Of a DNA stretch of 32,506 bases, positions 1,816 to 26,639 are shown piece by piece. Position 1 is the first letter of the stretch. Every line of letters begins with the position of its first letter. The notes below the pieces were generated by a model. That model worked only from the letters and a program-made list of their open reading frames with translations, was not told the origin of the DNA and ran no database searches. Origin of the DNA: Dehalococcoidia bacterium (GTDB lineage: Bacteria; Chloroflexota; Dehalococcoidia; SZUA-161; SpSt-899); NCBI GenBank assembly GCA_023271485.1, contig JALPXT010000001.1, positions 1-32,506 of the forward strand. The letters are read 5' to 3'. The translations under genes and the position numbers were made by a program.

Positions 1816-1850
1816 TTGACACTCCCTTCATAACCCGGCAATTTCAGCCA

Positions 1851-1880: not shown

Positions 1881-1891
1881 CACCAATCTCA

Positions 1892-2713: not shown

Positions 2714-2716
2714 TGC

Positions 2717-3499: not shown

Positions 3500-3502
3500 G
3501 CC

Positions 3503-3538
3503 AAGATCATCAGGGGGATTCTCCCCCTGAAACCCCCT
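3503..3538 (-). promoter_or_regulatory. Conserved hairpin motif, copy 1 (9-bp stem TCAGGGGGA/TCCCCCTGA, loop TTC, plus AACCCCCT)
   Basis: A perfect 9-bp inverted repeat at 3510-3530 ends 10 nt upstream of the phosphatase ATG. A near-identical copy lies at 15697-15738. Confidence 0.55.
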
Positions 3539-3560
3539 AAAAGGCGGTCAGGCCTGGGAT

Positions 3561-3617
3561 TCGTAAAGGAGCTTCGCCCCTTTACGAAGCATAGGAATTC
3601 TGAAATTCCTATGCTTC
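3561..3617 (-). other. Two back-to-back stem-loops immediately downstream of fpg
   Basis: At 3586-3617 there is a 14-bp perfect stem (GAAGCATAGGAATT/AATTCCTATGCTTC) with loop CTGA, starting 3 nt after the fpg stop. At 3561-3587 there is an ~11-bp stem with one mismatch and loop TTC. No clear U-tract follows. Confidence 0.5.
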
Positions 3618-3620
3618 CTG

Positions 3621-4442
3621 CTAAGCTCCATCTGGCTGACACCGGGCACAGAAATGAGTCCCCCGGCCCCGGAGCGAAACTCTCTGGATGGGAGACCCAC
3701 AGTAGAGGCAAGATTCCCCACGGCGGTGGGCGACCTGAAATTCCAGGTGTGCCTTCCCGGTTCCCCCATCGGGACGACGGTAGGTATTGACGCTCGCTCC
3801 CTTACGCTTTATCCCCCCCTGTAATACCTTTACGATTCCGCGGTGCAGCCGCTCGATTTCATCAGTTGAAAGGGCATTCGCCTTCTTTAAGGGATGGATG
3901 CGGGCGGCAAACAATGCTTCATCGGCATACATATTGCCGATGCCCGCTATGGCGTGCTGGTCGCAGAGCAGGACTTTTATCGCCACCCGGCGCGGGCTTA
4001 GAAGGTTCCCCAGGACGGCCGGCGTGAAGGAGGGCCCCAGAGGTTCAATGCCTAACTTGCCGACGACCCTGTTCTGATCCTCAGTCAGCCACATTGCCCC
4101 GAACCGCCGTTGATCGACGAAGTGTAAATCGTTGTCGCCGTCGAGCCGGAATATCGCGCTGGTGTGATTCTCCGGTCCACAGGATGCATCCCTGAGCAGC
4201 AGGACGCCGCTCATCTTGAGATGGAGAATTAAGGTCTGGCCACCGGAAAGTCGAAAGAGGAGATATTTCCCTCGACGCCATATGGCCATTATCTCCTGGC
4301 CAATGAGCCTCTGGCAGAATGCCTCCGGCGAGGGTTCATGCACCGCTTTTGGTCTGAATAGCTCCACCCCGACAAAACGACGGCCTCTTATCTGAGGAGC
4401 GACTTCGTTCTTTATGGTCTCGACTTCCGGCAGTTCGGGCAT
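3621..4442 (-). CDS. mutM: Formamidopyrimidine-DNA glycosylase
   Basis: 273-aa ORF. It has the MPELPEVE N-terminus and a C-terminal zinc finger (CLYCGSPI...FCARCQ). Confidence 0.92.
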   Translation of the reverse strand: MPELPEVETIKNEVAPQIRGRRFVGVELFRPKAVHEPSPEAFCQRLIGQEIMAIWRRGKYLLFRLSGGQTLILHLKMSGVLLLRDASCGPENHTSAIFRLDGDNDLHFVDQRRFGAMWLTEDQNRVVGKLGIEPLGPSFTPAVLGNLLSPRRVAIKVLLCDQHAIAGIGNMYADEALFAARIHPLKKANALSTDEIERLHRGIVKVLQGGIKRKGASVNTYRRPDGGTGKAHLEFQVAHRRGESCLYCGSPIQRVSLRGRGTHFCARCQPDGA

Positions 4443-4450
4443 TTAGTCCT

Positions 4451-4996
4451 TTACAGGTTTGCCAGGACCTCTCCATTTATTTGCTCTACCCTTGGTTTGC
4501 CCACCAACACCTCAACCAATTTCATGGAGAACTCCATTGCTGTCCCGGGTGCCTGGCTGGTTATGATCCTGCCATCAACAACAACCCTTTCATCTACGTG
4601 CTGAGCTCCACTCAGCATGTCTTTCACCGCCGGGTGGATGGTGGATTTTCTGCCTTCGAGTATGCCGGCCTTAGAGAGTACCGACGGAGCACCACATATG
4701 GCGGCGACATACTTGTTCTTGCCATGCATCTCCCGGACCAACCCCAACACCCTTTCGTCTTTCCCAAGGTTCACAAAGCCCGGATAGCCGCCAGGAAGGA
4801 CGATGACATCGAAATCACCGGCGCTTACCTTATCTATCAGCGTATCAGGTATTACCTTGACCCCGTGGGCCCCGTCGATAGCACCCTCCTTTAGCCCGGC
4901 AGTGATGACCTCCATCTCGGCTCTCCTCAGGATATCAACGATGGTGCTAAACTCTATTTCCTCAAACCCATCCACTAGCGGAACCAAAACTCTCAT
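4451..4996 (-). CDS. DJ-1/PfpI family protein
   Basis: 181-aa ORF with the nucleophile-elbow motif AAICGAP and overall DJ-1/ThiJ-like sequence. It lies 8 nt upstream of fpg. Confidence 0.85.
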   Translation of the reverse strand: MRVLVPLVDGFEEIEFSTIVDILRRAEMEVITAGLKEGAIDGAHGVKVIPDTLIDKVSAGDFDVIVLPGGYPGFVNLGKDERVLGLVREMHGKNKYVAAICGAPSVLSKAGILEGRKSTIHPAVKDMLSGAQHVDERVVVDGRIITSQAPGTAMEFSMKLVEVLVGKPRVEQINGEVLANL

Positions 4997-5026
4997 TTCA
5001 ACCTCCTTTTTGGGATTTCTGAGTTT

Positions 5027-5055
5027 AGTATACCGATAGGGCTGAGCTGTGTCAA
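5027..5055 (-). promoter_or_regulatory. Candidate sigma70-type promoter of the DJ-1/fpg operon
   Basis: The minus strand reads TTGACA (5055-5050), a 17-nt spacer, then TATACT (5032-5027). The -35 sits inside an 8-bp inverted repeat, GGCTGAGC...GCTCAGCC (5040-5071). An AAAGGAGG SD precedes the ATG at 4996. Confidence 0.5.
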
Positions 5056-5150
5056 TTATGCGCGCTCAGCCGCGGCGCCTTTTCCCCCGGCATCTGAGGA
5101 TGCCGACTCCTCGGATGCCTTGTCTTCTTGAAACTGTTCAACTACCCTAT

Positions 5151-5284
5151 GTCACCCTGAGCCTGAACGCAGTGAGGGAGAAGGGTCTCCGAGGTTCTTC
5201 CCGGAGCCGTCTCAAAAGAAATGAGATTCTTCGCTTCGCTCAGAATGACAAAAGCGAAGGACCAGAATGACAGAAGCGAAGGGT
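5151..5284. repeat. Intergenic palindromic repeat of the GTCAYYCTGAGC...GAAGRRTCTC type, plus a 20-nt tandem duplication
   Basis: The right arm GAGATTCTTCGCTTCGCTCAGAATGAC (5223-5249) is the reverse complement of the motif in the degenerate left arm GTCACCCTGAGC...GAAGGGTCTC (5151-5189). CAGAATGACARAAGCGAAGG is repeated at 5241-5260 and 5263-5282. Translations give the RFFASLRMT / VILSEAKNL peptides typical of spurious ORFs over this repeat class. Confidence 0.7.
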
Positions 5285-7688
5285 TACCTTCTCTTTTTTT
5301 GGCTCTCATGCCGCAGCGGCATAAGGCGCTCAGCCAGTATATTGACCGTCCCACTCGACTTCTGGACTATGCCCTCCACGACCAGCAAGGGCTCCATGCG
5401 AGCTACCCGGCGATACCTTTCGTAGACCTTTGGCCTCACCACTATGTTAATCAGACCATGCTCGTCTTCGAGGGTAAGGAATAGATGGCCCTTGGCCGTC
5501 GCCGGTTTTTGGCGGCAGACCACGTAGCCAGCGGTGCGAACACGGGTATTGGAGAACAGGCTTTCAATTTCTTGGCTGCTAAGGATGCCATCATTAGCGC
5601 TCCGCAACAGTTGCATCGGATGATAGCGACATGATAACTCATAATCTTCGTCCAGGCTGCTTCACCAACACCCTTAACATACTTGAAGCCGAGCCTGATC
5701 TTCCCATCTTCTATGGTGCAGCGGTCTTCGCTCTTATTTACATCCACCGGCAGCATCTGTATCCCGTGACGCCGGGCATCGTTCACTATAACCTCCGGGG
5801 AGTAGAAGCCCATGGGCTGGTTGTTAAGGAGAGCGCAGTAGAACCTTTGTTTGCCCATCGCCCGGCGGAGTTGCTCCGCCTCGGCTGGACTAAAACCGGC
5901 GATCTCCACCGCTATCCTTAATACCTGCTCCTGAAAGAGGATAACCCCCATTGTTTCCTCCAGGATGGGTTGAAGCCTGGGGTGCAGATAGGTTACCTTC
6001 TCCAGTCCTTGCCTCCGCCGGAGATAGGGGTGAACCATATTGCCCTGCAGTGGCCCCGGCCGCACGATAGCCACCTCGATTATGAGGTCCTCAAGAGAGC
6101 GCGGCTTTGATTTGGGCAACATCTGCATCTGGGCCCTGCTTTCCACCTGGAAGACGCCGATGGTATCAGCGCGGCAAATCATATCGTAGACCTGCGGGTC
6201 ATTTAACGGTATCTTGTCCAGATTGAGGTCAATACCTCGGTGCCTCTCGATTAGCTCCCGGGCCTCTTGAATGAGCGACAACATCCTCAATCCAAGGAGG
6301 TCGATCTTGATCAGTCCTACATCCTCGATATCATCCTTATTCCACTGGGTTACCACCCTGCCCTGAGCTGCCGCCGGCTCCAGAGGGACGATATCAATCA
6401 GTGGACAGGAACTCACCAGCATGCCGCCAACGTGAATGGATAGGTGCCTGGGGAAGTCGGCAACCTGTTCGCAGAGCGCAAGGAACATCTGCCAGGCAGG
6501 GCTTTCAACGCTATCCTTGAATTCACTGATTCTAAGCATCTCATCCCTCAGGTTTGCTGCGGAATAGGTATCGAGGGATTTCGCCAGCCGGTGGATTACG
6601 TGTTGGGGCATGTCTAATGATTTACCCACATCCCTTACGGCCTTCCGGGCCTGGAAGGTAACCACATTACACACCATAGCGGTATGCTCCTCGCCGTATT
6701 TGCGGTAAACATACTGGATAAGCGCCTCCCGGTGATTGGTGGAGATGTCGATATCGATATCAGGGGTGCCCTGCATCTCCTCGTTGAGGAAACGCTCGAA
6801 GAGGAGGTTGTGCCTTAAGGGGTCAACCCTGGTTATTCCCAGGAGATAGGCGACGATGGAATTGGCAGCCGATCCTCTGCCCTGAGCCGGTATGCCGTTC
6901 TGCCTGGCATGGTGCATAATGTCCCAAACGATAAGAAAATATCCGGCCAGGTTCATCCTCTGGATTACCCCCAGCTCGTGCTCAAGTTGCTCTATCACCT
7001 GCTCACCAACCGGCTCATATCTTTCCTCGGCGCCCTGGCGGCAGAGTTCCCTCAGGTAGCTCATTGAGGTTTCGCCCGATGGCACAGGGAAATCGGGGAA
7101 GCGGTACTCCTCGAGGTTGAGGTCGACATGGCATCTCTCGGCAATTACCAGCGAGTTAGAAACCGCCTCCGGATAACGGCTAAAGAGGAAGGTCATCTCG
7201 TCTTGAAGCCGGTATCCCTCAGGCGTGGCATAATGGACGTTATTGGTGGCCACGTAGCCAATCCCTGCTTGTCTGGCGATATTGACGAGCTTATCGCAGA
7301 GCCGAGCCTCACCGGGAAGAAGGTGTCTTTGGAGTTCAATCCAGAAGTTATCCCCTCCAAATAGGGCCCTATATCTTTGGGCCGCCCTCGAGGCCTCGTC
7401 CAGCTTATTCTGCAGGAGATATGTGGCCACCTCGCTCTTCCGGCATCCGGAGAGACAGATGAGGCCTTTGCTGTGACTGGATAACGTCTCCCAGTCCAGT
7501 GAGGTCCTGGTTTTCTTTGAGTGGCTGATGAGGCGGCAGAGGTTAGAATAGCCAGCCTTGTCCTCGGCAAAAAGGGTTATATGATACCCTCCATCCAGGG
7601 CCACCTCAACGCCGATAATTGGCTTTATCCCCTGCTCCCAGGCCGCTTTATAGAACCGAACTAGGCCCGGCGTAGAGGCATCCCTGGT
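5284..7688 (-). pseudogene. dnaE2: Error-prone DNA polymerase III alpha (DnaE2-like), multiply deleted
   Basis: ORFs of 717 aa and 110 aa in different frames carry DnaE motifs (GIKPIIGVE upstream of the called start, NNVHY, QPMGFYSP, and an OB-fold region RQKPATAKGHLFLTLEDEHGLINIVV). The N-terminal PHP start is missing. Segments appear absent after RRAMGKQR and after KGVGEAA, and the reading frame changes near 5655-5675. Confidence 0.75.
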
Positions 7689-7846
7689 TCAACCCCGCAG
7701 GCGGCTGCCTCGGGCGAGGCATCGTAAACCGGCTTTGACTCGAATGACGAGCCGCCGATGACTAACGGCCGCCGGCCCAGTTGAGGGTCGTGAGTCACCG
7801 CTGCCTGAACAGCGAAATTGTGGATCAGAACACAGGCAACCCTCAT
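7661..7846 (-). pseudogene. imuB: ImuB-like Y-family polymerase remnant (first ~60 codons only)
   Basis: The 61-aa ORF MRVACVLIHNFAVQAA...DASPEAAACGVEPGMPLRRA matches the N-terminus of ImuB/Y-family polymerases, which normally run to about 400-500 aa. DnaE2 homology starts in another frame within ~25 nt of its stop. Confidence 0.6.
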
Positions 7847-7856
7847 CTACTCCCCC

Positions 7857-8377
7857 TTACAGCTTCCTTAAGACTCCAATCACCCTACCTTGAATCTCGA
7901 TATTCTCCGGGAGGTGATAGATCGGCGACATCATCCTGTTTGCCGGCCTGAGGCAAACCCTTCCCTGTTCACGGTAGAGTCTCTTCAGGGTCACCTCCTG
8001 CTCATCCCTCAGCCATACAGCAGCCATCTCGCCGTCATCAACTGTGCTTACCTGCTGCATCAACACTACGTCCCCATCATCGATAAGCGCATCGATCATG
8101 GAGGTGCCTTTTACCTTGAGGGCGTAAACACCCTCTTTACCCTGGATCATATCCTGGGGTAGTTCGAGCGTCTCTTCAGGGGCAGCAGCCCAGGTATCGG
8201 CAATTGGCACCGGTATCGGTGCGCCGGCGGCGATTGTTCCCAGTAAAGGGACATCAATAGTAACCGGCCGTTCCTCTTCAGCAAGGCGTATACTCCGGAA
8301 CACCTGAGGATCACGGTAGATATAGCCCTGCTTTTCCAGCATGTTCAGGTGGTGCTGAACCACTGATGGCGTTAGTA
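7857..8377 (-). pseudogene. lexA: LexA repressor, 5'-truncated by the IS630-family insertion
   Basis: The S24 peptidase domain is intact (GTSM ... KRL Ser/Lys dyad). The frame stays open (LLTPSVVQHHLNMLEKQGYI) right up to the IS end at 8378. The ~35 N-terminal codons of the winged-helix domain are absent. Only a GTG at 8363 is available as a start. Confidence 0.75.
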
Positions 8378-9607
8378 ACTAGTACCTTGTCACTCTTTAA
8401 TTAATGGATAGAGGCGTTTGAGTTTTATGCGGGCATCTTTTGTAGTAAACTGCCAGTCGACACCTTTCTGTTGCTCGTTTCGTCTCTTTTCCCACGCTTT
8501 GGTTTCATTGCCCAGCGTTTGGATATCCGGAATTCGCCGATCAAGGCATTGCGTTGTCAGGGCGCTCAACTCGATTTCGGCGATATTTAGCCAGCTCCCA
8601 TGCTTTGGCGTATAGTGAATTTCAAGACGCCTGGCAAGCTGTCGCGCCACTTCAGGTGGGAATGCTTCATAGAGAGAGCCGAGCTTATGCGTGTTCAGAT
8701 TGTCACACACCAGACGCACTCGTTCAGCTTCAGGATAATTGACCTCCAGGAGACTTTTGATCGCATAGGCCCAGTCGAGCCCGGTCTTACGCTCTCTGAC
8801 ACTGACACCGCGACGTCCATTAAGAGGTTCAGTGAACATGAATACGTTGGCTGTACCATTGCGTTCGTATTCGTAGTCCACACGCGCCGGTTTCCCCGGC
8901 TCAGCCGGAAGTGGGTCTCTCCTTTCCTTGATCAGTTGCACCGGTTGTTCATCCATACATACCAACGGAATCTGTGGATCATATGGCAAGTGATACAATT
9001 CCAAGACATCCTCCATTCGTGCCACGAACTCGGCATTCTGCTCCGGAGGGATGACCCACGATTTGCGCAAATGTGGCTTCAGCTCGCTTTTTTTAGAGTC
9101 CGCCTCACGGTTTCATATGAAAGCGTGTCTACAATCTCCAATTCCACCACTTTATCTGCCAGGAGGCGCAATGTCCACCGATTGCGTCCCTCCGGCGGCT
9201 TGCTGCAACTCAGGGCTATCAGCCGTGCCTCCGCTTCTCCATCCAGTTTCCTCTTGCGAGGACCACGATCTCGCCTCTTACGATTCAGAGCCCCTTCTAA
9301 GCCTTGCTCCACAAAGCGCTGCCGGATACTGCCAACCGTTTTCGTATTCACCGAAAAAGCCTCTGCTATTTGCGCATCCCTCCATGCCGGCCCATCAACA
9401 TCAGCCTTCAGCAGGATGTTGGCGTGTTTGATTTTATACGCTGCCGCCTTTCCCTTTCTGGTCAACTCCGTTAATTGCTCGCGTTCTTCCTTGGTAAGAC
9501 GTACTACATACTTCTTCATGTCGTTCTCCCATCTGATAGAGTCCCACTTTAACAGACGAAATAACGACTCATTTTGTTCCATTCTTTAAGGGTGACAAGG
9601 TACTAGT
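8378..9607 (-). mobile_element. IS630-family insertion sequence (~1.23 kb)
   Basis: The terminal inverted repeats at 8378-8400 and 9585-9607 match at 21 of 23 positions (ACTAGTACCTTGTCAC...). TA dinucleotides adjoin both ends, with boundaries uncertain by 1 nt. The element encodes HTH and DDE transposase ORFs. Confidence 0.85.
8390..9582 (-). CDS. IS630-family transposase, two frames joined by a putative -1 programmed frameshift
   Basis: OrfA (9079..9582, 167 aa) is an HTH domain. OrfB (8390..~9094, DDE domain) carries DNLNTH and WLNIAEIE. An A7G slippery run on the minus strand (9088-9094) lies where the frames overlap. A -1 slip gives ...TLKKKSELKPHLRKSWVIPPE, matching single-ORF relatives. 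Confidence 0.8.
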
Positions 9608-9608
9608 A

Positions 9609-10028
9609 TCACGACTCAGCCGCCCAAGCGGTTGGAATCTGTCTTCCTCGTTTGGTACGATCAAAATCGCTGTCAAAACTTACTAATGTCAGGTCATATT
9701 TTTCGGAGATCACATATTGATAAGCATCGTCAAAGTCCAAATCAAATTCTTTTGCTCGGGAAGCCAAGGTTTCAATATCAGAGATTGATATTCTCAACAG
9801 CCGGAGTCCACCAGTTACGAGTAGATCATCAACAAATCGTTTGAAGATTTCAGGCAGATTACGGTGAAACAAGATAATCCCGATGGAATAGAGCGAAAAT
9901 TCGGAGATGTGAAGTTTCTCTCTCGAAGTGCCCCGCAAGAATTTCTCAACCTCCTCCGCGTTATCCTGGTCTAGGAGCAACTCTAGAAAGACATTGGTAT
10001 CAAGAAGATACATCAGTCCCCCCACCAC
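9609..10028 (-). CDS. vapC: PIN-domain toxin (VapC-like)
   Basis: 139-aa ORF starting LLDTNVFLE, with conserved acidic residues in a PIN-like pattern. It overlaps the upstream small gene by 16 nt. Its stop codon lies 1-2 nt from the IS630 end. Confidence 0.8.
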   Translation of the reverse strand: MVGGLMYLLDTNVFLELLLDQDNAEEVEKFLRGTSREKLHISEFSLYSIGIILFHRNLPEIFKRFVDDLLVTGGLRLLRISISDIETLASRAKEFDLDFDDAYQYVISEKYDLTLVSFDSDFDRTKRGRQIPTAWAAES

Positions 10029-10219
10029 TCCGAGGCCTTATGTTGAAGCTCTACAGAAGTATAATCATCTCTCAAATCTTTTATTGCACCCTTCCAGTCA
10101 AGTTTTAGCTCGCCATTGCGTTTTCCTGGTAAACGCGTGAGCAAAAATTCTGCAAAATCTCCTACTTCTTGCTGGAGATCCGGTGGTAATTGGGCTATAA
10201 GTTCGTTTACTGTTCTCAT
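10013..10219 (-). CDS. Antitoxin-like small protein (DUF2281/VapB-like)
   Basis: 68-aa ORF with the LPPDLQQEVGDFAEFL motif typical of DUF2281-type partners of PIN toxins. It is translationally coupled to vapC. Confidence 0.65.
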   Translation of the reverse strand: MRTVNELIAQLPPDLQQEVGDFAEFLLTRLPGKRNGELKLDWKGAIKDLRDDYTSVELQHKASEWWGD

Positions 10220-10310
10220 AATGCTTACATCCCTTGTTCTTTTTCTACCCTTCTGAGCTCATCAAACACATCTGGCCCTCGCCATCGAATCTAGATCTCT
10301 TGCTTGTTCC

Positions 10311-10403
10311 AGGTTCAGGGTTCGCTTCGCGAGTCTAGAGTCTGGAGTCCCTCCCCGATTCGCTAGTCGCTAGTCGACAGTCCCCCGCTCCACTTCAGCC
10401 TTC
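10311..10403. repeat. Heptamer repeat block (GGTTCRN x2; inverted GACTCYA units; GCTAGTC x2; CTTCAGCC)
   Basis: The units are aggttca gggttcg (10311-10323), gagtctagagtctggagtc (10331-10349), gctagtc gctagtc gacagtc (10362-10382) and cttcagccttc (10393-10403). The last three parts are reverse complements of blocks at 12180-12274. Confidence 0.65.
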
Positions 10404-10533
10404 TGTATCCAGAACATTTTCTCCATCTCGCGCCGATAAGCGCGTATCCTTAAAATCCCCCTTATAAAGGCATGCTACCATATCTCTGTCTTTCCTGTCA
10501 AGGAAAGATCAGCTAACATACCGCCGATCTGTA

Positions 10534-10542
10534 TGCTATAAT
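10534..10542 (+). promoter_or_regulatory. Candidate extended -10 promoter element (TGCTATAAT) upstream of the DUF72 gene
   Basis: TGcTATAAT lies 16 nt upstream of the ATG at 10559. There is no good -35 box. Confidence 0.3.
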
Positions 10543-10558
10543 CTGGACGAGAGCAAAG

Positions 10559-11475
10559 ATGGGGAACATATTGATAGGCACGTGTTCCTGGACGGATCCC
10601 ACTCTGCTTAAGAGCGGGTTTTATCCCAGAGATTGCCGCACTGCCGAGGGAAGGCTTCGGTATTATTCGCAGAACTTCAATCTGGTGGAGGTAGACAGCA
10701 CCTATTACTCCCTGTTAGCCGAGAGGACAGCGGAGCTCTGGTGCCGGAGGACACCGGAGGATTTCACATTCGATGTAAAGGCCTTCTCCCTGTTTACGCA
10801 GCACCCGACGCAGGTTCAGTCTTTTCCCAGGGATATTCGGAATGCGCTCAGCAAGGACACCGCCCAGCGCCCTCGGATCTACTATCGTGAGCTTCCTCTG
10901 GAGATAAGGAACGAGCTCTGGGAGAGATTTGCTCGGGCGCTCTTGCCCTTAGATAGCGCTGGCAAGCTGAGGGTGGTTCTGTTTCAGTTCCCCCCCCGTG
11001 GTTCTACCCGAGGGAAGATAATCGGCGCTACATCGCCCGGTGCCAGGAAAGCCTGCCTCAGTATCGAATCGCGGTCGAGTTTCGCAATGGTGCGTGGCTC
11101 AGCGAGGAGGAAAGAGACCGGACATTATCTCAATTGAGGGATAACGACCTGGCCTATGTTTCAGTAGATGAGCCACAGGGATTCAGGTCATCTGTCCCGC
11201 TGCTGGCTGAGGCTACCTCTGATGTGGCGGTGGTTCGCTTCCATGGACGAAACAAGGAGAACTGGGAAAAGAAAGGCACACCGGTAGCTGAGCGATTCAA
11301 GTATCTCTACTCCAGGGAGGAACTTGGTGAGTGGTTGCCTCGCCTCCAGTCTCTTGCCTCCCGGACGAGGGAGCTTCATGTGCTGTTCAACAATTGCTAC
11401 GGGGATTACGGGGTAAGGAATGCCATGGATATCACCGATCTCATGCGTTCGCAGCCGCTCCTGTTTCCCGACTAG
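10559..11475 (+). pseudogene. DUF72 (UPF0759) family protein, frameshifted at a C8 homopolymer
   Basis: ORFs 10559..11137 and 11134..11475 are the two halves of one DUF72 protein. The second frame is open back to WFYPREDNRRYIARCQESLPQYRIAVEFRNGAW, starting at 10999. The frames meet at the C8 run at 10990-10997 (…LFQFPP / WFYP…). Confidence 0.75.
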
Positions 11476-11499
11476 GCAAGTGATAACGGAGGTAATGCT

Positions 11500-12102
11500 A
11501 TGGCAGAGAAATATGCAGATAAGAAGGCCGCTTCGAAAGACTCCGACAATTACAAAATAATTTTTATGGGCAATAGCATTTTTTCCTTTGCTGAGGGGCT
11601 TTACTATCCTTTTTTAATTGGTTTCCTTTATGGTCTCGGCGGTATGCCTTTACTGGGAGCCCTAGGATTAATCATAATATTCGATTCGATCGGAAGTTAT
11701 ATTTCTGGAAAATTAGCTGATAAGTATGGTCGGAAACCTTTTTTCTTAATTACCCCTGTCGTCAGCATTGCTGTTTTTGTATTTTATCCCCTTCTTCCTC
11801 TTCTGGGCGAAACAATGCCCAGTTTGATGTTTCCTGCATTGTTTCTGATACTTATTATTGATGGGGTACTGGATGGGTTTTGGGGTACGGTTGAAGCAGT
11901 TTATCTGGCAGATATTACGAGCAAGGCCACTCGCGGAAGCAAGATGGGTTCTTACTGGGGGGTGAGTGGGCTGATAACCGGAGCAGCTATGCTCGGTGCT
12001 GGGTTTCTGGGACTATATATTGATTTTCTTACCGCTGCAATTATCGTCGCTTTCATCTATCTCAGTGGCTTCATTATATTGCTTCGCATCAAGGAGATGT
12101 AG
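11500..12102 (+). CDS. MFS-like membrane protein, half length (about 6 TM)
   Basis: 200-aa hydrophobic ORF with an MFS motif-A-like loop, GKLADKYGRKP, between predicted TM2 and TM3. It is visibly lower in GC than its neighbours. It ends where the heptamer repeat block begins. Confidence 0.6.
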   Translation: MAEKYADKKAASKDSDNYKIIFMGNSIFSFAEGLYYPFLIGFLYGLGGMPLLGALGLIIIFDSIGSYISGKLADKYGRKPFFLITPVVSIAVFVFYPLLPLLGETMPSLMFPALFLILIIDGVLDGFWGTVEAVYLADITSKATRGSKMGSYWGVSGLITGAAMLGAGFLGLYIDFLTAAIIVAFIYLSGFIILLRIKEM

Positions 12103-13524: not shown

Positions 13525-15729
13525 TCAAGGCGACTGATGCTTCAATTCCCAGGCATCCGACACGATTATCTCTCCGGCGGAATCCACGATCAGGCCGGCG
13601 ATCGCCAGCGAATTCAGCAGTTCCTTTCCTTTCTCCGGCCCCAATACAAAGACAAGTGTGGTGAGGGCGTCGGCATCGAGGGAATTTCCGGCAACGATGG
13701 TGACGCTCATGACTGCATCGGCCGGTTGGCCCGTTTTCGGATCGAGGATGTGATGAACCCTTCTCTCCCCCAGCAAGAAGAACCGTCTGTAATCACCGGA
13801 GGTGGCCACTGCTGCGTTTTTAAGATCTATCACCTCAAGCCACTCGTATTCATCGCGCGGATGTTGAATAGCAATTCTCCAGCTTTCAGGCCCAAACCCT
13901 CTGATATCCCCCCCGATGTCTACCAGCGCCCGCTCAATGCCGCTTTCCTTTAAGACGGCAATTGCGCGATCCACTGCATAACCTTTGGCGATCCCACCGA
14001 GGGTGATCTTCATCCCTTCCTTGAGGAATCTGGCCCTGCCGTTATCCTCATCAAGCTCCAGAGCCCGCCAATCAACCAGTGCAAGCGCCCTGCCCAGCTC
14101 GTCGGTGGTCGGAAGCCTCCCCCAGGCTCTCACCCTTTCCATCCACAGATCTAGCAGTGGTTTAACCGTTGGATCAAAGGCTCCGTCTGAGATACTGGCA
14201 AAATACAAGCTGCGCTCCAGCACATGAATGGTCTCCGGGGAGAGATACACCCAGGCTCCCCCTGATTGATTCAGGATATAGATCTCGCTGGAATGATCCG
14301 TGGCCGACATCAGGTTCTCAATTCTGGAGATTTCATCGAATGCGTCCCCCACGGCGGCCTCCGCCATTTGTGTGTCCTCGTCAATGGCCGTGATCGAAAC
14401 CACGGTTCCCATGGCCAGGCCCATTCCACGCACCACATTTCCGTCTACTTCTATCTGCGGTCTTTGCGCCCCGATGGGGCCCAGCACCAAACCAACCAGG
14501 ACGAGAGCCGCCATCGAGCCTGCCACAACCTTGCGGGTTTCACCTCCGAGCCTGGATAAGAGGAATAAAGCGGCGGCCAGGCTGCATTGGAGCGCAAGCA
14601 TGCTAATCGCCAGGCCCAGTAAACCGAAGGCCCTTCCCAGTACGATTATTCCCACGATTCCGATCCCCAGGGCGAGCAGATGGGAACCGAAAACGACATT
14701 GGTCTTTCCTTCGGTATAAAGGCTGGATGTCTTTATCCCCACGAGGGTCGCCGGGATTATCGCCAGCCCCATTATCTGAATAGCGTTCACGCTCCCGGCA
14801 AATTCCGGGAAGGCTAGCGGAACAACTAAATACGCGAAGAAGTAGGTAGCCGCAGCCAGTCCAAAGGAAGCGATAACCGCCATTTTTTCAATCTTTTCCG
14901 TATTCCTCCGGGCGGCTTTCTCGGATAAGAGGTAGAAGAACATAATTTGAGGTAGTATCCCGAACAGGAGGAAGATGCGGAAGGCGAAGTGGTAATATCC
15001 GAGCACTGCCATTCCGAAGAGCTTTCCTATCAGTATCTTGTCGAGGAAGCTCGTAGACACCCTGCTGATGTCGGTTCCCAGAACACCGAGCGTGAATTTG
15101 AGAGTTCCCCGGATTTTCCGAAAATCGGGTCTTAAGCGCAGGAGGTGCATAAGAGCCCTGCCACCAAAGAGGAGATAGGCAAGGGCCAGTCCGACCAGGA
15201 TCCACGTTATTGATCCCCAGAGGAGATAGAAAAGGACCGGGATGAGCAGGCAAAGCAACCGTGTCCCGACCCATGCCCGGAGATAACTTCCGTACTTCCG
15301 GCCCGCCAGCTCCAGGTGAACCGTGATCGAAAAAAGCGATAGCCCAATGGTGAGCAAACCGACCGCCGGTTCCAGAACAACTGAGACTGCTATTCCGGCA
15401 ATCAGACTGAGGATAACAACGACTGCCACCGAGCTGCTCACGAGCTTGCCGTCTTTCTCGGTGGCCAGATGGGTGATTATGGTCTTACCCAGGCCGAAGG
15501 TGCAGATGGTTGAGAGGATTGTCGCAATTGATACCAGCCAGATCAAGTGCCCGTAGGCCAGGGGATGGATAAGCAGGGCGAGCAGCAGCCACAGAGCCGT
15601 CCCCAGCAAAAGGGCGGCAAGTTGTGCCGACGCCACCCAAACGAGCCCGCGATCCCTGCCGGTGCTCATGTCTTCCATGTGAGACTTTCCAGCGGCAAAA
15701 TCATCAGGGGTATTCTCCCCCTGACGCAT
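13525..15729 (-). CDS. Fusion protein: N-terminal multi-TM flippase-like (MOP/Wzx-type) domain plus C-terminal ApbE-family FAD:protein FMN transferase domain
   Basis: 734-aa uninterrupted ORF. The C-terminal ~303 aa (13528-14436) has ApbE motifs (GGIAKGYAVD, TSGDYRRFF...HHILDPKTGQP, DADALTT). The N-terminal ~420 aa contains about 12-14 hydrophobic helices and polysaccharide-flippase-like segments (LGYYHFAFRIFLL). The start is ambiguous among 15729, 15678 and 15669. Confidence 0.8.
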   Translation of the reverse strand: MRQGENTPDDFAAGKSHMEDMSTGRDRGLVWVASAQLAALLLGTALWLLLALLIHPLAYGHLIWLVSIATILSTICTFGLGKTIITHLATEKDGKLVSSSVAVVVILSLIAGIAVSVVLEPAVGLLTIGLSLFSITVHLELAGRKYGSYLRAWVGTRLLCLLIPVLFYLLWGSITWILVGLALAYLLFGGRALMHLLRLRPDFRKIRGTLKFTLGVLGTDISRVSTSFLDKILIGKLFGMAVLGYYHFAFRIFLLFGILPQIMFFYLLSEKAARRNTEKIEKMAVIASFGLAAATYFFAYLVVPLAFPEFAGSVNAIQIMGLAIIPATLVGIKTSSLYTEGKTNVVFGSHLLALGIGIVGIIVLGRAFGLLGLAISMLALQCSLAAALFLLSRLGGETRKVVAGSMAALVLVGLVLGPIGAQRPQIEVDGNVVRGMGLAMGTVVSITAIDEDTQMAEAAVGDAFDEISRIENLMSATDHSSEIYILNQSGGAWVYLSPETIHVLERSLYFASISDGAFDPTVKPLLDLWMERVRAWGRLPTTDELGRALALVDWRALELDEDNGRARFLKEGMKITLGGIAKGYAVDRAIAVLKESGIERALVDIGGDIRGFGPESWRIAIQHPRDEYEWLEVIDLKNAAVATSGDYRRFFLLGERRVHHILDPKTGQPADAVMSVTIVAGNSLDADALTTLVFVLGPEKGKELLNSLAIAGLIVDSAGEIIVSDAWELKHQSP

Positions 15730-15811: not shown

Positions 15812-15887
15812 GGGCGATTAGCTCAGCGGCTAGAGCGCTTGCTTCACACGCAAGAGGTCATTGGTTCAAATCCAGTATCGCCCACCA
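15812..15887 (+). tRNA. tRNA-Val (anticodon CAC), CCA encoded
   Basis: 76 nt fold as a cloverleaf: acceptor GGGCGAT/ATCGCCC, D arm GCTC-AGCGGCTA-GAGC, anticodon stem CTTGC/GCAAG with loop TTCACAC (CAC at 15845-15847), T arm ATTGG-TTCAAAT-CCAGT, and discriminator A plus CCA. Confidence 0.93.
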
Positions 15888-15895
15888 TTTTCGAT

Positions 15896-17389
15896 CTATA
15901 GGCCGCATAACTCGTAGATACGCCCTATATCAAGGCTCTCCCGCACTATCATGGCAAGCTTGTCGTATTGCTCCTCTCTGGATGGCAGCTCGCTTTGCAT
16001 TTCGAGTGGCTTTATGTTGTGCAGCAGACCACGTCGAAAGCGTTCATTGTCGAAGAGCCCGTGCAGATAGGTCCCGAATACCTTGCCATCGTGCCCCGTC
16101 GCCCCATCGGGGTGACTTACGTCCTCTCCTATCCTTTGGGTAATCTCAAAGGCCGGGGGAGCATCCCCGCCCAGAGTCTGGCCCATATGGATCTCATAGC
16201 CTGTCAGATCCTCCCCGGTAAGTCCCCGGAATAAGCCCTCGCCGGTGGCAATCCTTGCCTTCACCTGATGAGTCGTTTTCTGCCCTTCAAATACGGTCAC
16301 GATATCAAGCAAGCCTAATCCATCGATACTTGTTTGCTCCGACTCGACCCGCTGCGGATCCTCTATCCTCTTGCCCAGCATCTGAAAGCCGCCGCAGATG
16401 CCGATAACCGGCGTTCCTGCCCTGGCTTTGCTCAGGATTGCCTCGGCCAGCCCGATCTCCTTAAGATGGGCAAGATCGGCAATGGTACTCTTGGAGCCGG
16501 GGATGATTATCAGGTCGGGATTACCGAGCTGCCAGGGAGCGCTTATATAGCGCAGGCGGACCCCTGGTTCCTGCTGCAAAGGCTCGAAATCGGTGGAGTT
16601 AGAGATGCGCCGGAGATAGACCACCGCGATATCAATCCCACATTCTCGGTTCCATTCACCCGTCTCCCCCTGATGTATGGAGTCCTCTTCGTTGATCATG
16701 ATGTGGTGATAGTAGGGCACCACACCGAGAACCGGAATCCCGGTGTGCTCCTCCAGATAATCGAGTCCCGGTTGGAGAATGGAAATATCACCACGAAATT
16801 TATTGATGATAAAACCTTTAATCCTCTCCGCCTCCTCCTCCAGCAACACGACGGTTCCTATCAGCGAGGCGAAAACCCCACCCTTGTCGATATCGCCCAC
16901 GAGGAGAACCGGCGACTGAGCCAGCCTGGCGATGCTCATATTCACCATCTCGAAGCGGAGGAGGTTTATCTCCGCCGGGCTCCCTGCCCCTTCGATGATT
17001 ACGATGTCGTATTGGGAACGCAGCCGGGCTAGAGATTGTTCGATTATTGGAAAAAGGTCGAGGGTGTGCTTGTAATAGTCGCGGGCGCTTACTGTCATCC
17101 TTGGCTTTCCCATGACCACGACCTGCGACTTAGCATCGGCCTCGGGCTTGAGCAGCACCGGATTCATATCAACGGCAGGCTCGATCCCGGCAGCTTCGGC
17201 CTGTACCACCTGGGCCCGTCCCATCTCCCGACCGTCTCTGGTCACAAAGGAATTCAGCGCCATGTTTTGTGACTTGAAGGGTGCTACCCTGAAACCATCC
17301 TGATGCATGATGCGACACAGGGCGGCGACGATGATGCTCTTCCCAACCGAGGAGCCGGTACCCTGGATCATCAGCGTCTTGGCCGTCAT
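15896..17389 (-). CDS. cobQ: Cobyric acid synthase
   Basis: 497-aa ORF. It has an N-terminal P-loop-like GTGSSVGKS and a C-terminal glutamine amidotransferase domain (ICGGFQMLG, YEIHMG). Confidence 0.9.
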   Translation of the reverse strand: MTAKTLMIQGTGSSVGKSIIVAALCRIMHQDGFRVAPFKSQNMALNSFVTRDGREMGRAQVVQAEAAGIEPAVDMNPVLLKPEADAKSQVVVMGKPRMTVSARDYYKHTLDLFPIIEQSLARLRSQYDIVIIEGAGSPAEINLLRFEMVNMSIARLAQSPVLLVGDIDKGGVFASLIGTVVLLEEEAERIKGFIINKFRGDISILQPGLDYLEEHTGIPVLGVVPYYHHIMINEEDSIHQGETGEWNRECGIDIAVVYLRRISNSTDFEPLQQEPGVRLRYISAPWQLGNPDLIIIPGSKSTIADLAHLKEIGLAEAILSKARAGTPVIGICGGFQMLGKRIEDPQRVESEQTSIDGLGLLDIVTVFEGQKTTHQVKARIATGEGLFRGLTGEDLTGYEIHMGQTLGGDAPPAFEITQRIGEDVSHPDGATGHDGKVFGTYLHGLFDNERFRRGLLHNIKPLEMQSELPSREEQYDKLAMIVRESLDIGRIYELCGL

Positions 17390-17393
17390 ACCT

Positions 17394-17957
17394 CTATCCT
17401 TTCACCTTCATCGGAATGCCGGCGACCATGAAATAGACTTCACCGGCATATCGGGCAATCAGTTGGTTGGCTCTTCCCAGGAGGTCACCATACGCTCGCC
17501 CCAGTTTGCTCTCCGGCACCAGGCCAAGTCCGACCTCGTTAGAGACGATGATGAAGGTCGCACTCGTCTCTTGCATGAATTTAGCCAGCGTTTCCATTTC
17601 CGTCATCACTCGACCGCCGGCATCTTCGGTCTCGCCCGACTTTGAAAGCCCACGTTCTTCGCCGAGCATGAGATTAGAGACCAGCAAAGTGAGGCAATCG
17701 ATGAGCACCACCTCGGCATCGCCGATCCGCCCGGCAATCCCCCGTGCCAGATTCGTAGGGGTCTCCAGTGTTTGCCAGGAGCGGGGACGTGCGCGCTGGT
17801 GCTCCGCGATACGTGTCTTCATTTCTTCATCGAGGGCCTCAGCGGTGGCAACGAATAGAACCTTGTTGCTGATACGGCCAGCCAGATCCAGGGCATAGCG
17901 GCTCTTCCCGCTGCGCACTCCGCCCAGTATAAGGATATGCTTTCTATTCAAAGCCAA
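17394..17957 (-). CDS. cobU: Adenosylcobinamide kinase / adenosylcobinamide-phosphate guanylyltransferase
   Basis: 187-aa ORF with P-loop GGVRSGKS and a CobU/CobP-like sequence throughout. It lies 4 nt upstream of cobQ. Confidence 0.88.
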   Translation of the reverse strand: MALNRKHILILGGVRSGKSRYALDLAGRISNKVLFVATAEALDEEMKTRIAEHQRARPRSWQTLETPTNLARGIAGRIGDAEVVLIDCLTLLVSNLMLGEERGLSKSGETEDAGGRVMTEMETLAKFMQETSATFIIVSNEVGLGLVPESKLGRAYGDLLGRANQLIARYAGEVYFMVAGIPMKVKG

Positions 17958-23564: not shown

Positions 23565-24401
23565 CTATGAGTTGGATGACAAGAGGAAAGGCTGGTAATC
23601 TCCCTTCTTAAATGACGGACTCCTGCCATCGCCGGGGATGATCAGCGTTGCCGGCAGACCGTTGAAGGGGTGAGGGTAGACACAGACCTCGGCGCCGTAG
23701 ACTGCCTTGATATGCTGCGCGGTAATCACCTGCGTTGGCGAGCCCTCGGCATGGATACCTCCCCCATTGAGCATTATGAGCCGGTCACAGTATTGAGCGG
23801 CGAGATTCAGGTCGTGCAGGGCAGCTACTGCTGCCAGGTCATGCTCCAGACAGAGGTCTTTAACGAGATCGAGTGTTTCGACCTGATAGTTGATATCTAA
23901 ATGGGCGGTGGGCTCGTCGAGGAGAATAAGTTTCGGCTGCTGAGTCAGCGCCCTGGCGATGGTCAGACGCTGCCTCTCGCCGCCGGAGAGTTCACCGACC
24001 CTTCGTTCGGCAAAGGGCTGGGTCTTGGTTATCTCCATTGCTTGCCATGCAATATCGAAGTCACTCCGGCTTTCATAACGAAGCAGCCCCAGGTGAGGGG
24101 TTCTGCCCATGAGCACGATCTCAAAGCCGGTAAAGGCCTCGGGCAGAGTGGCTGTCTGAGGCACCACAGCGACGAGGGAGGCCAGTTCGCCCCGGCTGAT
24201 ATGGGCTATATCTCGTCCGTCGATGAAGACACGCCCGTTCTTTGGGGTAAGCAGATAGCAGATGCCTTTGATTAGGGTTGATTTCCCCGATCCATTTGGC
24301 CCGACAATGCCAAGCATTTCGCCCCGTGCAACAGAGAGGCTGATGTCACTGAGGACTGTGTGCTTTCCATAGCCGAGAGTGATGTTTTGTGTCTGCAACA
24401 T
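23565..24401 (-). CDS. btuD: ABC transporter ATP-binding protein (FepC/BtuD type)
   Basis: It has Walker A GPNGSGKST, signature LSGGERQR and Walker B LILLDEPT. It is the last gene of a cobalamin-riboswitch-controlled operon. Confidence 0.8.
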   Translation of the reverse strand: MLQTQNITLGYGKHTVLSDISLSVARGEMLGIVGPNGSGKSTLIKGICYLLTPKNGRVFIDGRDIAHISRGELASLVAVVPQTATLPEAFTGFEIVLMGRTPHLGLLRYESRSDFDIAWQAMEITKTQPFAERRVGELSGGERQRLTIARALTQQPKLILLDEPTAHLDINYQVETLDLVKDLCLEHDLAAVAALHDLNLAAQYCDRLIMLNGGGIHAEGSPTQVITAQHIKAVYGAEVCVYPHPFNGLPATLIIPGDGRSPSFKKGDYQPFLLSSNS

Positions 24402-24455
24402 TATTATTTCCCGGAGCGTAGAGCGACCTTTTTCGGGTCGCTACGTAACGCAACT

Positions 24456-25544
24456 TTAGAAAACCGCCCTCTTTTTGTGGCGCAGTAGATAGAGGAAAAA
24501 CGGCGCTCCAAAAAAGGCGGTTATCACCCCCACCGGTATCTCAGTGGGCGCCAGCATCGTTCGTGCCGCCGTATCAGCCAGGATTAAGAAACCAGCCCCA
24601 GCAAAGGTAGTCAATGGCAGCAAGAAGCGGTGGTCAGGTCCCCAGATGAGGCGCACCGCGTGGGGGACGATGATGCCCACAAATCCAATAGTCCCCACAA
24701 AGCTGACTGCGGCGGCAGTGATGAGAGTTGCCGCCACCAGCAAAATCAACTTGACACGCTCGACGTTAATTCCCAGTTGCTGTGCCTGTTCCTCGTCCAG
24801 TTGCATCACATTTAGTGGTCGGGCATAAAGCCAGATGAATACCACCCCGATGACACAGGGCGCAGCAATCATCCATACTTGCTCCCAGTTGCTCAGGGAG
24901 AATCTTCCCATAAGCCAGGCGATTATGCCGTGCAATCTCTCCCCTGAAATAATCATTAAGTAGGAAGTGATTGAGCCGAGAAAGGCACCCAGAGCTACAC
25001 CGGCCAGAATAAGAGTGGTTACCGGTAGGGTCTTGCCCACCCTGGCTATGGAATAGACGACGGCCACCGCCATCAGGGCACCGACAAAGGCCAGCGCGGG
25101 GATGAGACTAAGGCCGGCCACTGACCAGGGGAGAAGGAATCCAACCACCGCGCCCAGGGCCGCCCCCTGGGCTACCCCGATGAGATAGGGATCAGCCAGA
25201 GGGTTACGAAACAGCCCCTGATAGGTAGCCCCGGCCACGGCCAGGGCCGCACCGACCAGGCCTGCCAGCATCACCCGGGGCAGGCGAATATCAAGAATGA
25301 TCGTCTCCGTGGCATCCGGCCAAGCATGGATATCTGTAAAGGGCAACTGGGAAACCAACACCTCCCATATAGTGCCAATGGGAATGTGGGTGCTTCCCAT
25401 CGCTGAAGCAACAACCATAACCACTCCCAGAAGCAGTGCCAGCCCGGCAATGCTGTACAGCCGGGTTCGCCAGCGAGGCGAATAGGCTGGGGTAGCTTCC
25501 GGCAGCGGCATGGTCGTAGTATCAGGCGGGTTGAATGATGTCAT
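24456..25544 (-). CDS. btuC: FecCD/BtuC-family ABC permease
   Basis: 362-aa polytopic ORF with the FecCD signature region GTIGFVGIIVPHAVRL. Confidence 0.8.
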   Translation of the reverse strand: MTSFNPPDTTTMPLPEATPAYSPRWRTRLYSIAGLALLLGVVMVVASAMGSTHIPIGTIWEVLVSQLPFTDIHAWPDATETIILDIRLPRVMLAGLVGAALAVAGATYQGLFRNPLADPYLIGVAQGAALGAVVGFLLPWSVAGLSLIPALAFVGALMAVAVVYSIARVGKTLPVTTLILAGVALGAFLGSITSYLMIISGERLHGIIAWLMGRFSLSNWEQVWMIAAPCVIGVVFIWLYARPLNVMQLDEEQAQQLGINVERVKLILLVAATLITAAAVSFVGTIGFVGIIVPHAVRLIWGPDHRFLLPLTTFAGAGFLILADTAARTMLAPTEIPVGVITAFFGAPFFLYLLRHKKRAVF

Positions 25545-25546
25545 CG

Positions 25547-26458
25547 TTACTCCTGGAAAAGTTCGGGCTGGAGAAGTCCGGCCAATTCTTCCAGGGCATC
25601 AACCAGCCTTGGTCCCGGGCGCTGGAATGGATCTTCCTCAACCAGGTATACCCGGTCTTCCATTCCTGCTGTGGTTGCTGCCAAACGGGGGTCATCCTTT
25701 ACTCCGGCTGCGCCGTGAGTGGCGATAATCACCTGGGGATCTCGGGCAATGACCGTTTCCAGATCAATAACCGCCCAGTCGGCGAGGTCATGAGCAATGT
25801 TTTTCCCCCCGGCTTTAATGATCAGGTCATTTGCGAAGGTTCCTGATCCAGCGACCCATAGCGGGTCATGCCAGACTAGATGTAGAACCCGTGGTCTTTG
25901 CTCATCAGTCAGAAGCTGTGTTCTGGCAGTTATTGCCTCGATTCTCTCCTTGAGATCGGTAACCAGCCGGATGGCCTCCTCACTCTTGCCGGTGATTTCC
26001 CCGACTAAGGCAATATTAGCAAGTACCCTACCCAGGGTCTTTGGCGCCAGGACAAAGACAGTTATGCCGACCTCCTCCAGGGCGGCGATTCCATCCGGAT
26101 GGTGAATGCCAGCGGCCAGCACCAGGTCTGGCTCACGGGCGACCACCCTCTCCAGATCGAAGGGAACAAAACCACCCACCTTAGGTATATCCAGAGCCGC
26201 CTCAGGGTAATTGCACCACTCGGTCACCCCGACTATCCTATCCCCAAGACCGAGGGCAAAGAGGATTTCGGTATTACTCGGGGCAACGGAAACAATCCTT
26301 TGCGGGATTTTTTCGATGGTTACCGTTCTTCCCAGGTCGTCGACAAATGTACGGGGCACAGGTTCCACAGGCTCGACCGGCCTGGGGCACGCACCTGCTA
26401 GGGCAAGCGTCAGGATGAGGGTAAGAGCGATCAGGATTCTTGTCCAGTGTCCGTTCAT
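25547..26458 (-). CDS. btuF: Periplasmic/extracytoplasmic substrate-binding protein (BtuF-like, cluster A-2)
   Basis: It has PQRIVSVAPSNTEILFALGLGDRIVGVT and other BtuF/FhuD-type features. The start was chosen at ATG 26458 (GGAGG SD), which gives a signal peptide ending LALAGAC (lipobox-like). The ORF-track start at 26527 is unlikely. Confidence 0.78.
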   Translation of the reverse strand: MNGHWTRILIALTLILTLALAGACPRPVEPVEPVPRTFVDDLGRTVTIEKIPQRIVSVAPSNTEILFALGLGDRIVGVTEWCNYPEAALDIPKVGGFVPFDLERVVAREPDLVLAAGIHHPDGIAALEEVGITVFVLAPKTLGRVLANIALVGEITGKSEEAIRLVTDLKERIEAITARTQLLTDEQRPRVLHLVWHDPLWVAGSGTFANDLIIKAGGKNIAHDLADWAVIDLETVIARDPQVIIATHGAAGVKDDPRLAATTAGMEDRVYLVEEDPFQRPGPRLVDALEELAGLLQPELFQE

Positions 26459-26555
26459 TATAGCCTCCTTTCTACTGGATGTTGAACTTCTTCGGTGTTT
26501 TACCGATGCACCGGTCAGCCTTTTCAACGGCTAGAACATGTCTCTATCACCCCCC

Positions 26556-26592: not shown

Positions 26593-26639
26593 CGACAAAA
26601 CTAAAATCCTTCCCTCCCCTCGGAGGCGTTGAGATCGAA

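Follow-up and report, generated by a model that had tools for sequence, protein, structure and literature searches.

A conserved fusion of a Wzx-like membrane core with an ApbE flavin transferase is a candidate coupled FAD exporter-transferase

A single open reading frame joins a Wzx-like core to an ApbE domain

A 32,506-nucleotide stretch of a Dehalococcoidia bacterium contig (JALPXT010000001.1; hereafter the window) encodes, on its minus strand, a protein in which a membrane core of the MOP superfamily is followed by an additional transmembrane (TM) helix and an ApbE domain, the transferase that moves flavin mononucleotide (FMN) from flavin adenine dinucleotide (FAD) onto proteins. We propose, with a probability of about 0.5, that this protein is a self-contained exporter-transferase, in which a Wzx-like core has been re-purposed to deliver FAD or a close flavin donor to the fused ApbE domain. 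Neither the two domains nor the chemistry is new; what is new is the combination. Covalent flavinylation by ApbE takes place outside the cytoplasmic membrane, and to our knowledge the route by which FAD reaches ApbE is known for two systems only, the MATE protein Bfe of Shewanella and the ECF-type EetB/FmnA of Listeria. A conserved gene fusion is among the strongest genomic indicators of functional partnership. Here, it places a candidate exporter and its transferase in a single polypeptide where both can be tested together, so that the open question of FAD delivery becomes a single-gene experiment. If the core moves FAD, the fusion would be a third, independent solution to that problem.

The fusion ORF (open reading frame; 13525..15729, minus strand, stop codon at 13525-13527) encodes 734 aa in its longest form and is uninterrupted, with no internal stops and no frameshifts. 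The original prediction, made from the letters of the window, of a flippase-like protein joined to ApbE was borne out by Pfam matches for both halves of this one ORF and by single-ORF homologues in several phyla, and the two motifs that it had quoted, GGIAKGYAVD and TSGDY...HHILDPKTGQP, were both found in the translation. The nearest database protein (P0001) also has 734 aa, is 98% identical, and is named 'FAD:protein FMN transferase [Dehalococcoidia bacterium]'; existing annotations cover the ApbE half only, under this name or as 'thiamine biosynthesis lipoprotein'. The fused homologues have 714-721 aa and an N-terminus reading MEDM..., and in genomes whose copies are 80-95% identical, the tblastn alignments begin at residue 18 of the query. 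Because both the homologues and the tblastn matches begin at this residue, the real start codon is probably the ATG at 15678 (M18, 15676..15678, minus strand), which would give a protein of 717 aa.

The ApbE half is a complete enzyme domain

The C-terminal domain (aa 440-734; 13528..14412, minus strand) matched Pfam ApbE (PF02424) at aa 440-708 with an E-value of 1.6e-86 and 290.6 bits against a cut-off of 25.6. A phmmer search of this half against the PDB gave TM1553 (1vrm, E 2.8e-48). In the Foldseek comparison, the TM-score was 0.88 to 1vrm, 0.79-0.87 to all other ApbE structures, and 0.80-0.88 for the group of 1vrm, 5mgy, 7esa, and 4ifu, and the predicted local distance difference test score (pLDDT) of this half in the AlphaFold model was mostly above 85. 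The NCBIfam ApbE equivalog scored 127 bits against a cut-off of 498, and the fusion ApbE is therefore not an orthologue of the E. coli type.

The catalytic triad was located by alignment with the FmnB triad, with its spacing checked, at S644 (13798-13800), H660 (13750-13752), and D687 (13669-13671, all minus strand). These residues align as the counterparts of Ser241-His257-Asp285 of Vibrio cholerae ApbE, the conserved ApbE triad (PMC12052999), and were invariant or at least 90% conserved among 29 homologues; the GGIAKGYA and D687/T691 motifs were invariant or nearly so in the fused family. The domain is complete, as had been claimed, has an intact triad, and is predicted to face outward. The polar residue T477 lies, by alignment, at the position of E. 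coli Tyr60, which places the domain in the non-yellow, FAD-hydrolysing Ftp class that still transfers FMN (PMC4767422).

The fusion shares with the characterized ApbE/Ftp/FmnB proteins (PF02424; EC 2.7.1.180), including those of the RnfF genes beside rnf and nqr operons, the same fold, the Ser-His-Asp triad, the metal-binding motifs, a predicted extracytoplasmic site, and the partnership with Rnf described below. The ApbEs known so far are ~300-350 aa long and carry a lipoprotein signal or a single anchor; the fusion differs in its anchor, a conserved 13-TM transporter-type domain, and in the polar Thr at the Tyr60 position, which is that of the non-yellow class.

The membrane half has the fold of Wzx flippases and an additional helix

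Pfam, AlphaFold, Foldseek, and counts of Lys plus Arg (K+R) together define a 12-TM, Wzx/PST-like MOP core at aa 28-392 (14554..15648, minus strand), with an N-lobe of TM1-6, a C-lobe of TM7-12, and both ends in the cytoplasm. Pfam Polysacc_synt_3 (PF13440) matched aa 49-255 with 30.2 bits against a cut-off of 23, and a weak match to the NCBIfam 'MOP flippase family' was found at aa 195-401. In Foldseek, the top match of the N-terminal half was WzxE (9g9p, E 3.7e-8, TMt 0.72), followed by MurJ and MATE; the MATE structures were distant, superfamily-level fold matches with E-values of about 6e-6. A sequence-only search of the PDB with this half gave no match, and the fold comparison alone gave one. 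The transporter homology that had been claimed for the N-terminal half was therefore confirmed by PF13440 above its cut-off and by WzxE as the best structural match, and the combination of a family model match with a 12-TM two-lobe fold and cytoplasmic termini assigns the core to the PST/Wzx family. Membership of the MATE family (that of the flavin exporters Bfe and YeeO), which would have meant direct homology with Bfe, was ruled out, as there was no Pfam MatE match even at E <= 1. Likewise, no homology with ECF S- or T-components was found among the Pfam or NCBIfam matches of the fusion protein.

The AlphaFold model, built on 29 homologues (pLDDT 82; predicted template modelling score, pTM, 0.76), contains 13 long helices followed by an alpha/beta domain, and the hydrophobicity peaks concur. 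The earlier estimate of 12-14 TM helices was right in calling the protein multi-spanning; the exact number is 13, neither 12 nor 14. In the family alignment, the mean K+R count was 19.3 on the N-terminus and the even-numbered loops versus 0.4 on the odd-numbered ones, which is a very strong positive-inside signal. Together with the 13 helices, this signal predicts that the N-terminus lies inside and the ApbE domain outside the cell, which answers the question of topology raised with the original prediction.

The thirteenth helix (aa 398-421 in the model; 14467..14538, minus strand) has a hydrophobicity peak of 2.34 at aa 410 and is preceded by a K/R-rich loop, RLGGETR. WzxE has 12 TM helices with both termini in the cytoplasm (PMC11706664). 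Since a core of this type ends in the cytoplasm, a TM13 is exactly what ApbE needs to sit outside; in the predicted structure, TM13 is the adaptor that leads the polypeptide out of the cell from where TM12 ends in the cytoplasm, and it stands in for the signal or lipoprotein anchor that ApbEs usually have. Between the end of TM12 and the MGT motif, the spacer measured 48-51 aa in 28 of the 29 homologues, although identity in this region is only 35%. This constant length suggests, at the level of the alignment, a fixed geometry between the two domains.

The fusion is rare, conserved, and shared by bacteria and archaea

A word-indexed search retrieved about 37 clusters of full-length fused proteins with 46-98% identity, and a search with the membrane half alone retrieved the same fused proteins. 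With aa 1-425 as the query, phmmer was run exhaustively against 1.84 billion representatives and gave only 477 matches at E <= 0.001, the best of which were fused proteins of 685-796 aa; stand-alone proteins of ~380 aa came next at 25-33% identity. A scan of one genome per GTDB species yielded 33 loci, and a continuous fused ORF was present in about 25 GTDB species from Dehalococcoidia, a metagenome-assembled genome (MAG) labelled Acetothermia, Actinomycetota (including Ca. Hakubella), Synergistales, and eight Hadarchaeota. The fusion is thus rare, conserved, and common to bacteria and archaea. The two halves have co-evolved, their pairwise identities correlating with r = 0.92 across 406 pairs.

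These data bear on a trivial explanation, in which the fusion would be an assembly or annotation artefact, two adjacent genes having been merged by a sequencing error. Two copies from one metagenome (P0039/L004 and P0040/L001) are indeed split into a MOP gene and an overlapping ApbE gene. The splits are of the frameshift type and keep the same reading register (8001-9500, then 9494-10189), whereas one continuous ORF is present in about 37 clusters and in 20 GTDB genomes that stem from separate studies, and the domains are joined by a conserved TM helix and a constant-length spacer. A stop or frameshift between the domains, which had been named as a way for the prediction to fail, was looked for in the assembled sequence; none was present in the ORF, and the homologues were continuous too. 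Since the single-ORF design recurs across several phyla in at least 20 independent assemblies, a chimeric assembly is ruled out, and we consider the chance of an artefact of either kind negligible. The split copies were also considered as a natural two-gene ancestral state. This was rejected, as both come from a single metagenome and were split by frameshifts, with frames that overlap and an unchanged total length.

No description of a flippase-ApbE fusion was found in the literature searched, which was incomplete. The eLife survey of flavinylation does not mention one, and the sole ApbE fusion discussed in a 2025 review of ApbE is the ApbE-fumarate reductase of trypanosomatids. The architecture was therefore as rare as had been supposed in terms of clusters and descriptions; its novelty does not extend to the component domains, which are both of known kinds, and the combination is present in databases but unremarked.

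Two observations on the wider family were made in these searches. A MAG labelled Candidatus Acetothermia (L009, JAJHSB010000018.1) carries a copy 80% identical to the protein of the Dehalococcoidia window, which is either a recent transfer or an inconsistency of binning or taxonomy. Four proteins of the same small flippase family, P0130 (922 aa), P0179 (911 aa), P0198 (910 aa), and P0152 (629 aa), have other C-terminal extensions of ~250-530 aa with no Pfam match; fusion of this flippase scaffold to extracytoplasmic domains has therefore occurred on more than one occasion.

The fused gene is associated with rnf operons

Genes of the rnf type lie within 4 kb of the fused gene in 12 of the 20 complete fused loci. 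The fused gene and rnfB are arranged tail-to-tail, their stop codons 12-76 bp apart, in Ca. Hakubella and all eight Hadarchaeota loci, and this rnfB is part of a convergent rnfCDGEAB operon. A Synergistaceae genome has rnfCDGEA followed by the fused gene on the same strand, and in Dehalococcoidia (L022 and L024, as well as the metagenomic L001 and L004) the fused gene is 3.6 kb downstream of an rnfC-like/rnfD-like cluster. At the homologue loci, the neighbouring RnfG has the flavinylation motif DAITGATISS and RnfD has D..[ST].ATPL. No second ApbE was found within any fused locus examined. Because the fused gene is so tightly tied to rnf operons whose RnfG and RnfD bear these motifs, we assign to the ApbE half, with high confidence on the basis of gene context, the putative 'RnfF' role of a flavin transferase that matures Rnf-type complexes. 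An apbE gene beside rnf is a known arrangement and is often annotated rnfF (PMC5736913); in the Hakubella genome paper, the fused gene is drawn simply as apbE (PMC7325909).

The convergent module of rnfCDGEAB and the fused gene is common to the actinomycetotal Ca. Hakubella (L016) and to Hadarchaeota (L002, L019, L012-L020, and L033), with 55-68% identity between the Rnf subunits and the same gene order. This similarity points to transfer of the module as a unit between bacteria and archaea among subsurface and serpentinite-hosted anaerobes, and the fused family would thus mark an rnf and apbE module that has moved between the two domains in deep-subsurface and serpentinising habitats.

The Dehalococcoidia cluster is of a different make-up. 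At L022 (about 875-6434), L024 (about 715-6274), and L004 (1-5859), it encodes a molybdopterin oxidoreductase, a 4Fe-4S protein, an RnfC-like protein, and an RnfD-like protein, followed by tatA, tatA, and tatC. The RnfD-like protein carries the flavinylation motif DALTQATPL, and the cluster is without rnfG, rnfE, rnfA, and rnfB. It may encode a novel RnfCD-coupled, Tat-exported molybdoenzyme complex that needs the fused ApbE.

The core is conserved and differs from that of stand-alone flippases

Within the fused family, mean pairwise identity was 53% for the MOP core, 60% for ApbE, and 35% for TM13 with the linker. With conservation almost equal to that of the enzyme, the core is under selection and does not act as an anchor alone. 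This result bears on the possibility that the core transports nothing and only anchors ApbE, docking it by Rnf during assembly while FAD takes some other path. For ordinary ApbEs, a lipid or a single TM helix suffices as the anchor, and soluble truncated forms retain activity (PMC12052999); the close adjacency to rnf would also fit a docking role. An anchor would be expected to drift like TM13 and the linker, whereas the core has kept all 12 helices in every lineage. The core has also kept residues of working flippases (D230, K231, Y246, P260, and P326) and has newly fixed polar and aromatic ones (H55, R251, W64, and W153). A purely anchoring or scaffolding core is, in view of these features, unlikely.

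Comparison of the fused proteins with 118 stand-alone sequences identified 12 positions that are fixed in the former and different in the latter. Four of these residues, H55 (15565-15567), R251 in TM8 (14977-14979), F265 (14935-14937), and G321 (14767-14769, all minus strand), were present in 100% of the fused proteins and absent from the stand-alone relatives, including the closest ones. Position 251 is Gln in 97% of the 118 stand-alone sequences and Arg in every fused protein. This replacement, together with the three other fusion-only residues, suggests an altered specificity. Residues common to the fused core and the ~380-aa stand-alone archaeal flippases were W47, Y59, G60, D230, K231, Y246, P260, and P326.

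The genomic context of the two groups differed as well. None of 26 fused loci had glycan-type genes within 6 kb, versus 9 of 11 stand-alone loci, and 5 of the 7 stand-alone loci that had supplied no query sequence were also glycan-positive. The stand-alone P0053 and P0060, for example, lie among genes for glycosyltransferase, epimerase, NeuB, and CMP-sugar synthetase. The fused proteins therefore share with WzxE (PDB 9g9p) and the Wzx/PST flippases the 12-TM two-lobe MOP fold and its cytoplasmic ends, but differ from them in the additional TM13 and enzyme, in H55/R251/F265/G321, and in lying outside the glycan clusters that are the hallmark of Wzx.

A core that had remained a glycan flippase would flip a polyprenyl-diphosphate-linked sugar for glycosylation of the envelope or S-layer, and the protein would be bifunctional without flavin transport, its halves having been joined only because each acts at the outer face of the membrane. 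This explanation agrees with the Polysacc_synt_3 match, with WzxE as the best fold match, and with the 40% identity to a Heimdallarchaeota flippase adjoining GT2 and GT4 genes, as well as with the other relatives in glycan clusters. Against it stand the loss of glycan genes from the fused loci, the travel of the fusion with rnf across bacteria and archaea, the change of a near-universal flippase Gln251 to Arg in every fused protein, and the two co-evolved halves, which were never separated. We consider an unchanged glycan flippase quite improbable.

A proposed route for flavin delivery

In the coupled exporter-transferase that we propose, TM13 would hold the ApbE domain on the outer face of the cytoplasmic membrane, where the enzyme would attach FMN, taken from FAD, to a Thr in flavoprotein domains outside the cytoplasm. 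Its chief targets would be RnfG and RnfD of the Rnf complex, possibly with others. The 12-TM Wzx-like core would have been recruited from archaeal-type glycan flippases and given the new task of bringing cytoplasmic FAD, the donor, out to the transferase fused to it. The cofactor would thereby be handed over at the membrane rather than lost to the medium, in hosts without an outer membrane to retain FAD. We favour flavin export because the glycan context has been lost, the core is conserved, invariants specific to the fusion have appeared, and the spacer has a fixed length. By analogy, FAD (adenosine-diphosphate-ribityl-flavin) is bridged by a pyrophosphate and may thus resemble the pyrophosphate-sugar head group of Wzx substrates. 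If the proposal is true, a few substitutions in cavity-lining helices have turned a glycolipid flippase into a carrier of a dinucleotide, and the fusion explains how Rnf is matured in archaea and monoderm anaerobes without a periplasm to retain the cofactor.

Antiport is typical of MOP transporters, and the core might instead carry another flavin-related cargo: riboflavin or FMN, FAD in exchange for AMP, or a lipid-linked flavin donor. The release of AMP by ApbE outside the cell (PMC12052999) would fit an exchange of FAD for AMP, T477 at the E. coli Tyr60 position is that of the FAD-hydrolysing Ftp class (PMC4767422), and the ancestry of the core lies in the flipping of lipid-pyrophosphate-linked sugars. 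These cargos and FAD fit the available data alike, and characterized ApbEs take free FAD as the donor (PMC4767422, PMC12052999); another cargo is, in our estimate, distinctly unlikely. In one specific form, the core would retain its ancestral chemistry and flip a flavin linked to a lipid carrier (polyprenyl-diphospho-riboflavin, an analogue of FAD with a lipid phosphate in place of AMP), which would be a membrane-bound donor for the flavinylation of Rnf by ApbE. This form is highly improbable but, if true, would reveal a previously unknown cofactor delivery pathway of subsurface bacteria and archaea.

Several observations weigh against FAD export by the core. We infer this role from context and conservation, and the core is not a MATE protein. 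Its nearest stand-alone relatives (29-40% identity) are glycan-cluster flippases, the closest being the Heimdallarchaeota gene, at 40% identity and with GT2 and GT4 genes directly after it; homology alone therefore predicts a lipid-linked sugar as the substrate. Seven of the 12 fusion-specific positions are in TM1, TM2, TM8, or TM10, the helices that line the WzxE cavity (PMC11706664), an enrichment that is suggestive, statistically not strong, and at the level of helices only. Clean monophyly of the fused clade was not supported by the neighbour-joining tree, in which L027 and P0046 nest inside; the residue signatures separated fused from stand-alone proteins better than this tree. In P0047, a homologue of 796 aa, TM13 is followed by a long insertion. 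Finally, the sub-clade of the window itself (the window, L005, and L009) has no rnf gene and no flavinylation-motif protein nearby. The scan for motif-bearing substrates that had been suggested with the original prediction thus came back empty for the window and the loci of its nearest homologues, and the targets of these copies must be encoded elsewhere.

Three known systems share parts of the proposed function. Bfe of Shewanella oneidensis (SO_0702), a MATE-family protein and hence also of the MOP superfamily, is an FAD exporter that supplies the periplasm (PMC3551548), the function proposed here for the core. Bfe is a stand-alone protein uncoupled to ApbE, whereas the fusion core is of the PST type. 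EetB/FmnA of Listeria monocytogenes is an ECF-type exporter that feeds FAD to FmnB, the extracytoplasmic ApbE of a host lacking an outer membrane. The exporter genes are found together with apbE, and the authors who described the system argue that delivery is targeted (PMC9973259). In contrast to the fusion, the exporter has an unrelated fold, is ATP-driven and multi-subunit, and is not fused to ApbE. Targeted delivery of FAD to ApbE is an acknowledged open problem (PMC9973259; PMC12052999). The haem exporter/cytochrome c synthase CcsBA, an analogy cited in PMC9973259, follows the same logic, with one membrane protein moving and attaching a cofactor. It has no homology with the fusion and handles haem rather than flavin, and the likeness is one of proposed function only.

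The neighbourhood of the fusion gene

The gene for tRNA-Val(CAC) (15812..15887, plus strand) is a divergent neighbour 83 nt upstream of the ATG at 15729, and a 24-nt palindromic motif with a 6-bp G/C stem (15700..15723, minus strand) covers codons 3-10 of the 734-aa ORF. With the start at ATG 15678, this hairpin would probably lie in the 5′ untranslated region (UTR). The motif, CAGGGGGAGAATNCCCCTGATGAT, occurs in exactly two copies in the window, where none is expected by chance; the second (3506..3529, minus strand) is at the 5′ end of a minus-strand metallophosphoesterase gene, and about 32 nt of similarity flank both copies. The shared hairpin and the adjacency to a tRNA gene, both pointed out at the outset, are therefore real. 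The motif was absent from 41 related loci, and no matching Rfam family was found. It may be a genome-specific 5′-UTR regulatory hairpin or a small repeat element. A role of the hairpin as part of the conserved fusion system was rejected, both copies being in the window and none in the 41 related loci. Hairpin and tRNA neighbour are incidental to the function of the fusion, and no functional link of the tRNA is indicated.

The window as a whole is part of the chromosome of a Dehalococcoidia-type anaerobe, with corrinoid salvage genes and fragments of carbon monoxide dehydrogenase/acetyl-CoA synthase (CODH/ACS) and pyruvate:ferredoxin oxidoreductase (PFOR). The neighbours of the fusion gene are cobalamin, tRNA, and cysteine-synthase-type genes. 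CobQ and CobU (15896-17957) adjoin it; a BtuFCD-like ATP-binding cassette (ABC) importer is encoded at 23565-26527 and CobS and CobT at 26880-28701. Cobalamin riboswitches at 26628-26767 and 29350-29543 (both minus strand; 116 and 51 bits) precede corrinoid genes, and the corrinoid genes of the window are a typical Dehalococcoidia salvage island.

A patch of apparent gene decay at 5451-12102 surrounds an IS630-like transposase in two ORFs (HTH_32 at 9079-9582 and DDE_3 at 8390-9070). Within the patch are a 717-aa DnaE-like fragment that lacks the C-terminus and most of the PHP domain, a peptidase of the S24 (LexA/UmuD-like) type, a DUF72 protein of half length (profile 1-93 of 217), and a half-length transporter of the major facilitator superfamily (MFS; profile 2-171 of 347).

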